64,000 bases of DNA, from NCBI RefSeq assembly GCF_013122565.1, contig NZ_CP053258.1; one strand, given 5' to 3'. A program made the position numbers. Source of the DNA: Escherichia coli (lineage in GTDB: Bacteria; Pseudomonadota; Gammaproteobacteria; Enterobacterales; Enterobacteriaceae). The first letter of the stretch is position 1; each line of letters opens with the position of its first letter. Below are positions 27,001 to 30,000 of this stretch, in pieces.

Positions 27001-30000
27001 CCAGTCTGGTAAACAGCCTCAAAAGCGTATCGGGTAGGTTACTGCGACGAGATCGACCAGATATTGCAGCCAGGTATTACTACAAAGGCGTTTTGTGGAG
27101 TCCTGGCTATTTTGCCAGTAGCTGCGGAGGTACGCCAATATCCGTCATCCGCCAATACATTGAACAACAGCAAACACCTGGTCAGGTGGAAAACCACACC
27201 TTATATCCCCGCCCTGAAGGACGGGGTTTTACGGCGCACCGGATAAATTCGCCTCACGGCATCAACCCATTGAACAGACGCTTTTTACGCGGCCCGGTCA
27301 TTAAAGATTCCAGTTTCGCGACACAGGTTTTGTAGTGAGGCGTGGTTTTATGGAATGCCACTGCGTCTTCATCTTTATAGGCTTCGTAAATATAAAAGCG
27401 CGAATTCACTTCCGGGTCCTGTAAGACATCGAAGCGCAAATTGCCTTCTTCCTGTACAGAGCCCAGGTGGTTCTGGCGAAAAACTTCGATAAACTCGTCA
27501 ACCTTGTCTTCATGAACGTTAATTTCAACCAGTGTGACGTGCATAATTCTTCTCCTTAAATCCGCAGTTACTGTTTTTCACTCAGATAGAGTTCATATGC
27601 CCGATCAGCTGTTTCGTTATGGTGAACCACCGCCTGTACGGCTTTCATCATCGCCACCGGATGGTCAGACTGGAAAATATTACGCCCCATATCCACACCA
27701 GAAGCGCCCTGATCGATAGCCTGCCAGCACATTTCCAGCGCCTCGCGCTCCGGTAATTTTTTACCGCCAGCAATAACAATGGGTACCGGACATCCGGCAA
27801 CAATCCGTTCAAAACCTTTATCGACATAATAGGTTTTGATAATTTGCGCCCCCATTTCAGCGGCGATTCGAGTCGCGAGCGAGAAATAACGCTGATCGCG
27901 CACCATATCTTTGCCCACGCCTGTCACGGCCATGGTCGGCATTCCCACTTTCATTCCGGCATCGACCAGCTGAATAATATTTTTGATCGACTGATGTTCA
28001 TATTCGCTGCCGATATAAACCTGCGCCGCCACCGCGCAACTGTTCAGGCGCACGGCGTCATCCATCGATAACGCCACGGCTTCATTACTTAATTCCGCCA
28101 GAATAGAGTTCGCACCTGACGCCCGCAGTACCACTGGCTTATTGGTCGCCGGGGGAACTACGCTGCGCAAAATACCGCGCGTACACATTAATACATCGGC
28201 ATGTTCAAACAGCGGGGCGATATTTATATCAATGCGTTCAAGTCCGGTAGTCGGCCCCTGAAAATAACCATGGTCAAAGGCCAGCATCACGGTTTTACCC
28301 GTTTTCGGATTAAATATCCGCGATAAACGTGACTGCATTCCCCAATCCAGCGCACCGCAACCTTTCAGGGTAAAAGGGATATTTTGTTGCGGTTGATCGG
28401 TACGAAAATCTTTACCATCTTTAATATCGTCTAAATCTGCCATAACTTACTCCGGTTAAGTAATGCACATCAGAAATCGTATTTGCCGATATTCTCTTTG
28501 TTGAATATCACGCGCTCCGGTAACAGTACGATGCCATTACCATCCGCTTCGTAGTCATAGCCCTGAACGCTGTTTGGCGAGACTTCCACCTGACCTACGC
28601 CCTGAATATCCAGCTTGTCGCCCGTTTTCATTGATCCTTTTTTCAATAATGCATCCGCGACATAAACTGAAATTTTGCCTTGCTGAACCACATCCCACAG
28701 GCCAAATTCTTTCACCGTGCCGCGCTCTACATACGGGCGCATCACATTTGGCGTACTGAATCCGACAATCGCTACTTTGTCATTTTTCAAGTTTTCTGCG
28801 GCTTGTGCGGCAGCGGGCAGGGCGTTGGCATCGGGGGCGATAATGGCGTCGAGATCGCTATACGCTTTTAATATTCCTTCTGCGGTTTGTAACGATTTAG
28901 TGGCATCGTTATAGCCAAACTGCGTAGTGACAATTTCCCAGCCAGGATGCTCTTTGGCGATTTTCGCTTTCGCTTCTTTCACCCACTGGTTTTGGTCCGT
29001 AACGGTGGGGCTTGAGTAGAAAAACGCGACTTTGGCTTTGTCTTTATTCACCTGACGCGCCGCCATATCCACCAACATACCTCCCAACTGGGCGGGCGTT
29101 CCCTGATTAATGTAGTAAGAGCGGCACTCCGGTTTAGTATCAGAGTCCCAGGTCAGCACTCTCACACCACGTTGCATGGCGCGTTTCAGTGCCGGACACA
29201 AGCCATCAGGCGAAACCGCAGAAACGATAATGGCGTTATAACCTTGATTGACGAAGTTATTAATCAACTGTACCTGACCAGAAACACTGGGTTCTGTCGG
29301 CCCGTCGTAGGTCACATCAACGCCCAGCTCTTTACCCGCTTGTTGTGCGCCGTTGCCACCGCTGGTAAAAAATCCCACGCCAACCAGTTTGGGAATAAAT
29401 GCAATACGCTCTGCGGCCTGCACATTCATAGAGATTGCGGCAATGCCAAGAGCGCTAAGTAAGGCGATTTTCTTAAAGCGATGAAGTGTCATGAAGATAT
29501 CCTTTATGGCAATGGGTTATTGGCCCGACGCGCCAGCCACTCTTTAATTTGCTGGCGATGCAGGCTAACGGAACGACCTACGACAACGACGATAAGTAGC
29601 GCACCGGAAAGGGCGCTGGACACCTGATTTGGCACTCCTGCCATTTGCAAACCTTGTTGCAAATATCCCACTAATAAAACCGCAATGGCGGTGCCGATAA
29701 TGGAACCGGAACCACCATAAATATTGGCCCCGCCAAGCACCACGGCGGTGATGGCGGGCATCAGAAACGACGCACCGAGATCGGAACGTGCTGAACCAAA
29801 ATACGATACCAGCAGCACAGCGGCGACCGCAGACGCCAGCCCCGTCATGGCATAGAGCGCACATAAGGTGCGGTTAACTGGAATCGCGCTATAAAGCGCC
29901 ACGCGCGGGCTTTGCCCAATCAAAAACACATTACGTCCGGCATGGGTTTTATGCAGCCAGAGCCAGAAAACGAGGAGACATATCAGGAAGATAATCAGCG

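Follow-up and report, generated by a model that had tools for sequence, protein, structure and literature searches.

The model element of the IS200/IS605 family is IS608 from Helicobacter pylori, which encodes a Y1 HUH transposase (TnpA), carries hairpins near both ends on one strand and inserts 3' of a tetranucleotide without duplicating it. Its TTAC and TCAA sites and the spacing of its hairpins are described in published work on IS608. The tnpA and tnpB genes of IS608 are co-oriented, with tnpA beside the left end at its 5' side; those of H. pylori IS605 are divergent. By ISfinder convention, copies are assigned to the same element when their DNA identity to the reference copy is at least 90-95%. 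In Escherichia coli, the element of strain K-12 (insP/insQ, formerly ynck/ydcM) has been named IS609 (PMC2891674, PMC5009759), and this copy has been reported to be inactive owing to an internal stop (PMC5009759, PMC2891674). Apart from these two statements on inactivity in K-12, a literature search for IS609 gave only inventory-type mentions, and nothing about the tnpA stop codon.

We analysed a stretch of 64,000 nucleotides from an E. coli genome (contig NZ_CP053258.1; hereafter, the window), in which an IS609-type element lies between tam and lsrG (Table 1). With respect to the K-12 copy of strain W3110, this element shows 97.5% nucleotide identity, with 43 differences over 1,748 alignment columns and, taking that copy as the reference, its sequence identifies it as IS609. 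Both copies have divergent tnpA and tnpB genes, the same ends, a TTAT target and a CAG codon at the former tnpA stop. They differ in their insertion sites, and in that the K-12 tnpA contains an internal nonsense codon, whereas that of the window does not. The characteristic traits of the IS200/IS605 family are all found in the window element, namely a Y1 HUH TnpA, subterminal hairpins on the same strand at both ends, and no terminal inverted repeats or target duplication. The presence of TnpB, with its 3' end adjoining the right end, is the trait of the IS605 group. IS608 TnpA (2a6m) aligns to the window TnpA with E = 4e-18 and, as in IS608, insertion is 3' of a tetranucleotide and the right end finishes with TCAA 10 nt after the hairpin on the top strand. 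In contrast to IS608, the target is TTAT instead of TTAC, and the two genes are divergent, as in IS605. This divergent layout puts the 3' end of tnpA against the left end of the element, so that the loss of its stop spills into host DNA. The normal C-terminus expected for the TnpA of a functional autonomous IS609, with a stop after ...EQQQTPG, is absent from the window copy, which has CAG instead.

Table 1. Positions in the window of the IS609 element, its genes and hairpins, and the tnpA frame that runs on into lsrG.
Feature	Position	Strand	Description
IS609-type IS200/IS605 element	25496..27242	-	1,747 bp; its functional top strand corresponds to the minus strand of the window
Right-end subterminal hairpin	25506..25525	-	20-mer, twin of the left-end hairpin with 3 mismatches, same orientation; 0 matches expected by chance
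tnpB (InsQ)	25538..26746	-	Intact; 402 aa, RNA-guided nuclease gene; 7 bases from the tnpA start, on the other strand
tnpA ORF, including run-on	26754..27335	+	193 codons
tnpA conserved body	26754..27182	+	143 codons; relatives in other genera end exactly here
HUH motif H69-V-H71	26958-26966	+	Within tnpA
Catalytic-helix Tyr135	27156-27158	+	Within tnpA
CAG (Gln144) at the ancestral TAG stop position	27183..27185	+	Stop-loss mutation, from comparison with relatives
Read-through codons 144-163 (QVENHTLYPRPEGRGFTAHR)	27183..27242	+	Left end of the element; outside all family and structure matches
Left-end subterminal imperfect hairpin	27207-27226	-	Top strand CCCCGTCC-TTCAG-GGCGGGG, one extra-helical T
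Target tetranucleotide TTAT (ATAA on +)	27243..27246	-	Abuts the left end on its 5' side (top strand); ATAA at 8/8 E. coli loci
Host-encoded run-on, codons 164-193 (30), and TAG at 27333-27335	27243..27335	+	11 nt of spacer, then 82 nt antisense to lsrG
lsrG	27254..27544	-	Intact and uninterrupted, 96 aa; Pfam ABM 1.6e-20; RefSeq annotation of same-site relatives

A first-pass annotation of this DNA had described the tnpA frame as open to the end of the element and reading 82 nt into lsrG on the opposite strand. The six-frame ORF list agrees with this, since the frame has no stop within the element and overlaps lsrG at 27254-27335. The stop does lie inside lsrG, as had been stated, but the position given for it (27336) is the base that follows the TAG. 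The window tnpA is otherwise intact, with its start codon, the HUH motif and Tyr135, and no internal stop; an active protein with an extended C-terminus could still be produced from it, an observation that would speak against decay of the gene. The product matches Pfam Y1_Tnp over residues 19-139 (9e-41) and NCBIfam transpos_IS200 over residues 13-138 (143 bits, cutoff 55). H69-V-H71 and Tyr135 align to solved TnpA structures, which in the structure alignment cover residues 11-144 only. As no family or structure match extends beyond residues 138-144, the 50 codons beyond the former stop, 20 from the left end of the element and 30 from host DNA, fall outside the TnpA fold. A host-encoded C-terminal tail had been one of the options offered in the first-pass annotation, and codons 164-193 are indeed derived from the flanking DNA. 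However, they are host-encoded because the tnpA stop has been lost, and the tail is probably non-functional. Fifty further open codons are expected by chance with a frequency of about 9%, (61/64)^50, which is statistically unremarkable. The point that needs an explanation is therefore the missing stop at 27183-27185, rather than the length of the run-on.

Another option was that the end of the element had been misplaced and lies beyond 27335, with a 3' region of lsrG that differs from that of K-12, in which case the whole ORF, including its stop, would be encoded by the element. Apart from the open frame itself nothing favours this possibility, and both boundaries can be read directly. In the window orientation, the uninterrupted tam-lsrG spacer of K-12 reads ...gtagataaaattg|ataaattcgcctca..., whereas the window has ...gtagataaaactg, then the 1,747 bp, and then ataaattcgcctca, with one flanking SNP with respect to K-12 and no duplicated bases. 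The element thus sits 3' of TTAT and ends 11 nt from the lsrG stop, and the sequence from 27243 onward is that of the K-12 spacer and lsrG. In copies found at eight E. coli loci, similarity to the window ends at exactly both boundary positions. At these eight loci the + strand of the element starts with TTGACATCC... and closes with ...GCGCACCGG, directly before ATAA, and the loci diverge immediately past ...CACCGG at the left end. The top strand of the element finishes ...GTCAA, with the right-end TCAA constant at the eight loci, and GATAA adjoins the left end at 13 distant loci. Together, the empty site in K-12 and the eight independent junctions fix the end of the element at 27242, which leaves an end beyond 27335 with a negligible probability. 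The insertion between lsrG and tam is common to 30 of 5,426 complete E. coli genomes.

The position at which tnpA formerly ended was evident from its relatives. We searched a large protein collection with the 163 element-encoded residues and aligned the relatives that were found. In nine other genera, TnpA ends ...EQQQTP(G/S/D). Ten aligned homologues of 138-146 aa, from Salmonella, Photorhabdus, Morganella, Klebsiella, Proteus, Yersinia and Erwinia, have as their last residue the one that precedes Q144 of the window, and in that alignment only E. coli sequences run on past this residue. The first-pass annotation had expected a YPGSPFTG-like motif shortly before the normal end of TnpA, but the ten relatives end 20 codons earlier, before the hairpin. 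At the DNA level, the codon equivalent to 27183-27185 is TAG in the five genera that were read (Proteus, Salmonella, Citrobacter, Pantoea and Erwinia). TAG is also found at this codon in a minority of E. coli copies, which RefSeq calls complete TnpA proteins of 141 or 143 aa under the name 'IS609 family transposase'. As the relatives have TAG where the window has CAG, the comparison indicates that a single T-to-C transition turned the ancestral TAG into CAG, and that the tnpA stop was lost in this way. Among the options considered initially, a lost stop is therefore the one that stood, and both its identity and its position can be read directly from the alignments. The intact IS609-type TnpA copies (WP_044804197.1, WP_123178535.1 and WP_000604942.1; 141-143 aa) represent the same gene, in some strains at the same loci, with a DNA divergence of about 2% from the window. 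They keep TAG at the equivalent codon and are annotated as complete, in contrast to the window copy with its CAG.

To determine the frequency of the two alleles, exact matches to a 65-mer centred on this codon were counted in the same set of 5,426 complete genomes, which contains roughly 8,700 IS609 copies. CAG was present in 3,848 records and TAG in 577. Thus, CAG is the majority allele of E. coli IS609 copies and the window copy is not unusual. A sequencing or assembly error in the window could also produce a missing stop, but finding the same base in so many complete-genome records, as well as in each of the three copies from the lsrG-tam site that were examined, leaves this explanation with practically no weight. 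The special status that the first-pass annotation had implied for this copy was not confirmed either, since most E. coli IS609 copies likewise have no stop; the annotation had itself named close relatives without a stop before the element end as the finding that would tell against its reading.

Copies with CAG are located at at least eight distinct E. coli loci, each with a different tail that depends on the flank, which could mean that the stop-less element kept transposing. When translated, they run into their own flank and give ORFs of 180, 193, 201 or 320 aa depending on the site, and some end sooner because of an earlier nonsense mutation. RefSeq labels the CAG copies as pseudogenes ('incomplete; missing C-terminus'). 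At three or four orthologous loci, both TAG and CAG are present in different strains (gltX-yfeD, DUF1869-yeaQ, yidH and the TetR/ytfB site). It is unlikely that the same base mutated independently at several loci; the polymorphism is most simply explained by ectopic gene conversion from one copy to another, selection on the codon being a possible alternative. In support of conversion, copies at ydcL-ydcO and yidH have in common an identical nonsense codon (codon 96), which other yidH copies do not have. A polymorphism of this kind at several orthologous loci is not what simple neutral point mutation predicts, and either conversion or selection would be needed to account for it under a scenario of decay. 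We had also read gene conversion from a pair of same-site copies at gltX-yfeD (the 'O157:H7' pair), which differ by 2.2%, but we dropped this reading because their flanks differ by 1.5-1.8% as well, in line with ordinary divergence. That same-site copies have diverged about as much as their flanks points to old, vertically inherited insertions. Among plasmids, 33 records cover most of the TAG 65-mer query; most matches are partial, restricted to the left end, and come from Klebsiella plasmids.

We then examined the hairpin that the open frame crosses. On the + strand it reads CCCCGCC-CTGAA-GGACGGGG, followed by TTTT at 27227-27230, and the top strand folds as CCCCG(T)CC-TTCAG-GGCGGGG; the DNA fold of the top strand gave z = -2.4 for the 71-nt region around the hairpin. 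The first-pass annotation had proposed either a subterminal structure of the element or a terminator. The former is observed directly, as the hairpin has a twin at the right end, whereas it makes a weak candidate for the latter. A 31-mer containing the hairpin has exact matches in 13 contigs in a scan of one genome per species, including Edwardsiella, Citrobacter, Pantoea, Erwinia, Acetobacter, a Pseudomonadales MAG and several gammaproteobacterial MAGs. In each of them GATAA follows about 10 nt later, and most have no tnpA upstream; in the two contigs that were checked, the neighbouring gene is a lone tnpB. The TnpB next to the exact 31-mer in Acetobacter, which no tnpA accompanies, is only 42% identical to that of the window. 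Identity of the 31-mer alongside such a divergent TnpB shows that the hairpin is constrained as DNA and, by analogy with the established mechanism of IS608 and ISDra2, it is most plausibly a transposase-binding hairpin. Given this conservation at the DNA level, the peptide YPRPEGRGFT, which had been aligned with the motif expected near the end of TnpA, is a mere by-product of translation. As for the terminator, a terminator consensus scan did not call the left-end hairpin with its TTTT; the stem has a bulge, and its U-tract is limited to four residues. The RNA fold of the + strand, a GC-rich stem and then UUUU, has -14 kcal/mol over 56 nt, which does not surpass that of shuffled sequence (z = -0.2). 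The terminator reading was supported by neither the consensus scan nor the shuffle test. A search of the element against Rfam gave no match at a family's gathering score.

The other gene of the element presents a different picture. The tnpB product contains three Pfam domains (OrfB_IS605, 2.5e-34; Cas12f1-like TNB, 2.1e-23; and an HTH domain), matches NCBIfam guided_TnpB with 2.3e-114, and its stop is located 42 nt from the right-end terminus. We aligned 15 copies of the element and classified each variant against the consensus. In this set of few and non-independent copies, tnpA showed 9 synonymous and 30 non-synonymous variants (pN/pS 0.99), with three independent nonsense sites and also a frameshift allele, whereas tnpB showed 37 synonymous and 48 non-synonymous variants (pN/pS 0.37) and was full-length in 15 of the 15. 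That these ratios come from 15 non-independent copies is a point on the side against decay. The contrast fits the expectation for a tnpA that evolves by drift in E. coli next to a tnpB maintained by purifying selection.

The window contains a resident IS609 that has lost the stop of its tnpA and, considering all these data, we find it probable that this reflects ordinary decay in which tnpB is kept, with an accidental run-on into lsrG. The element, with divergent tnpA and tnpB, is integrated between lsrG and tam, 3' of TTAT, and its tnpA formerly ended at TAG right after ...EQQQTPG. Since the T-to-C change made this codon CAG, the frame crosses the left end, 60 nt that include the TnpA-binding hairpin, and continues into the flanking DNA to the first chance in-frame stop, here in antisense lsrG. 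The CAG allele would have arisen within the E. coli IS609 lineage, of which it is now the majority form, and it probably spread among copies by past transposition and inter-copy gene conversion. The 50-codon extension would then be an accident without a function of its own, in a gene that as a whole appears to be drifting in E. coli (nonsense mutations, frameshifts and a pN/pS near 1), with tnpB under purifying selection. Accordingly to this scheme the stop-loss change itself would be neutral or degenerative, and the tail non-functional.

It could also be that the stop-less TnpA is still a working transposase, in which an extension off the end of the catalytic helix is tolerated, so that CAG-type IS609 stayed mobile and spread, with a tail that is real but variable. 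The number of distinct loci occupied by CAG copies and the preserved catalytic motifs of the window copy are consistent with this, and tails of such a size exist in active relatives, as IS608 TnpA continues for about 19 residues past the aligned domain (chain of 155 residues, aligned to 136). Nevertheless, we consider it rather unlikely in view of the pN/pS of about 1 and the frequent inactivating mutations of tnpA, of orthologous copies that have diverged as much as their flanks, as expected for old insertions, and of the nonsense mutation common to two loci, which shows that alleles can spread without autonomous transposition. Moreover, no IS609 transposition was found in K-12 mutation-accumulation lines, though the copy in that strain has an internal stop (PMC5009759, PMC2891674). 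Much less probable still is a scenario in which the tnpA mRNA ends at the hairpin and U-run (~27230) without an in-frame stop, leading to ribosome stalling, tmRNA tagging and degradation of TnpA, which would hold the transposase at a very low level while tnpB is retained. The GC-rich stem with its U-run, the lack of an in-frame stop between 27183 and the hairpin, and the predominance of CAG in E. coli would all suit such a mechanism. However, the short T-run, the bulged stem and the results of the terminator scan and of the shuffle test argue against it, any ribosome that translated the stem region would prevent termination by doing so, and neutral decay explains the same facts more simply. 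For the stop-less tnpA to be a selected design in general, throttling the transposase and preserving TnpB, either the C-terminus and stability of TnpA would have to be set by the insertion site or the non-stop mRNA would have to be tmRNA-tagged, and we regard this as very improbable. If it were true, the recurrent TAG/CAG polymorphism would represent selection toggling the transposase on and off, and a selected throttle would represent a novel mode of transposase regulation in a transposon, but the present evidence does not require that reading.

The stop loss is real and, under the preferred explanation of ordinary decay, unremarkable; CAG copies already count as pseudogenes in public annotation. 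It explains why most E. coli IS609 tnpA genes are flagged in RefSeq as pseudogenes with a 'missing C-terminus', and it accounts for the IS609 'transposases' of 160-320 aa predicted by gene callers, with site-dependent tails that are artefacts of the missing stop codon. The overlap of 82 nt with lsrG would be an accident of position, probably of no biological meaning, and the finding matters little beyond annotation. As a small data point, it adds to the view that TnpB outlives TnpA in IS200/IS605 elements.

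Comparison of the tnpB-tnpA part of IS609 in the window (25538-27182) with loci L001-L020, covering 15 E. coli copies, revealed different upkeep of the two genes. All 15 copies kept the full 402-aa tnpB ORF, with a pN/pS of ~0.37, whereas for tnpA in the same 15 copies pN/pS was ~1; nonsense codons occurred at three separate positions, and one allele was frameshifted. Judging from these sequences, the transposase gene of IS609 in E. coli is decaying and the nuclease gene is retained.

Some tnpA alleles were common to different loci. The copies at ydcL-ydcO (L005/L011) and one copy at yidH (L010) have the same nonsense mutation at codon 96, which is absent from the yidH copies of other strains. 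In addition, L010 showed 16-20 differences from the ydcL copies, but 36 from its own orthologues. Together, these two observations suggest either that IS609 copies have undergone ectopic gene conversion with each other or that a dead copy was mobilised in trans. At several orthologous insertion sites (L006/L018, L009/L019, and L010/L017), one and the same codon also varies between TAG and CAG, a pattern not expected from simple neutral point mutation.

The start codons of the divergent tnpB and tnpA genes are 7 bp apart, so each promoter must lie within the coding sequence of the other gene; a consensus scan detected no sigma-70-like site there. In the same-site relatives (L001 and L002), ATA stands in place of the tnpA ATG, and 138-aa homologues begin six codons downstream, at a codon that is GTG in the window; this later codon may therefore be the true start of tnpA.

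At the left end, the 31-nt sequence TATATCCCCGCCCTGAAGGACGGGGTTTTAC was identical at every base in 13 contigs (L021-L033) of very different bacteria, including Acetobacter, Edwardsiella, a Pseudomonadales MAG, and several gammaproteobacterial MAGs, among others. In these contigs GATAA usually comes next, and a lone tnpB is often adjacent. The TnpB of Acetobacter shares only 42% identity with that of the window, and for a transposon end the DNA conservation of the 31-mer is unusually strict. In the plasmid collection, ~800 plasmids, mostly from Klebsiella (e.g. H105-H159), matched at ~94% identity only the part of the TAG-allele query running from the stop codon to the left-end hairpin; these partial matches may stem from remnants of left ends or from related elements with tnpB only.

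At the opposite end, a sub-threshold match to the HgcC family RNA of Rfam (E = 0.01; 23.6 bits, gathering score 50) covers both the 3′ end of tnpB and the right end, the expected location of a TnpB guide (omega) RNA. A RAGATH-18 match was weaker still.

Coordinates of IS609-associated features (window unless indicated)
Feature	Position	Strand
HgcC match	25483-25605	-
RAGATH-18 match	25568-25611	
tnpB start, GTG	26746	-
tnpA start, ATG	26754	+
ATA at tnpA start, L001	2955	
ATA at tnpA start, L002	2947	
Candidate tnpA start, GTG	26769	
tnpA codon 96 (equivalent)	27040	
TAG/CAG codon	27183	
Left-end 31-mer	27203-27233	
Left-end 31-mer, L030	8412-8442	
Left-end 31-mer, L025	7515-7545	
IS609 with adjoining lsrG and tam ends	25448-27256	
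tam start, ATG	25450-25448	-

Finally, lsrG and tam, which are co-oriented and 56 bp apart in K-12, are separated by IS609 in the window. As tam starts 45 nt past the right end in the orientation of tnpB, its expression may depend on read-through out of the element.
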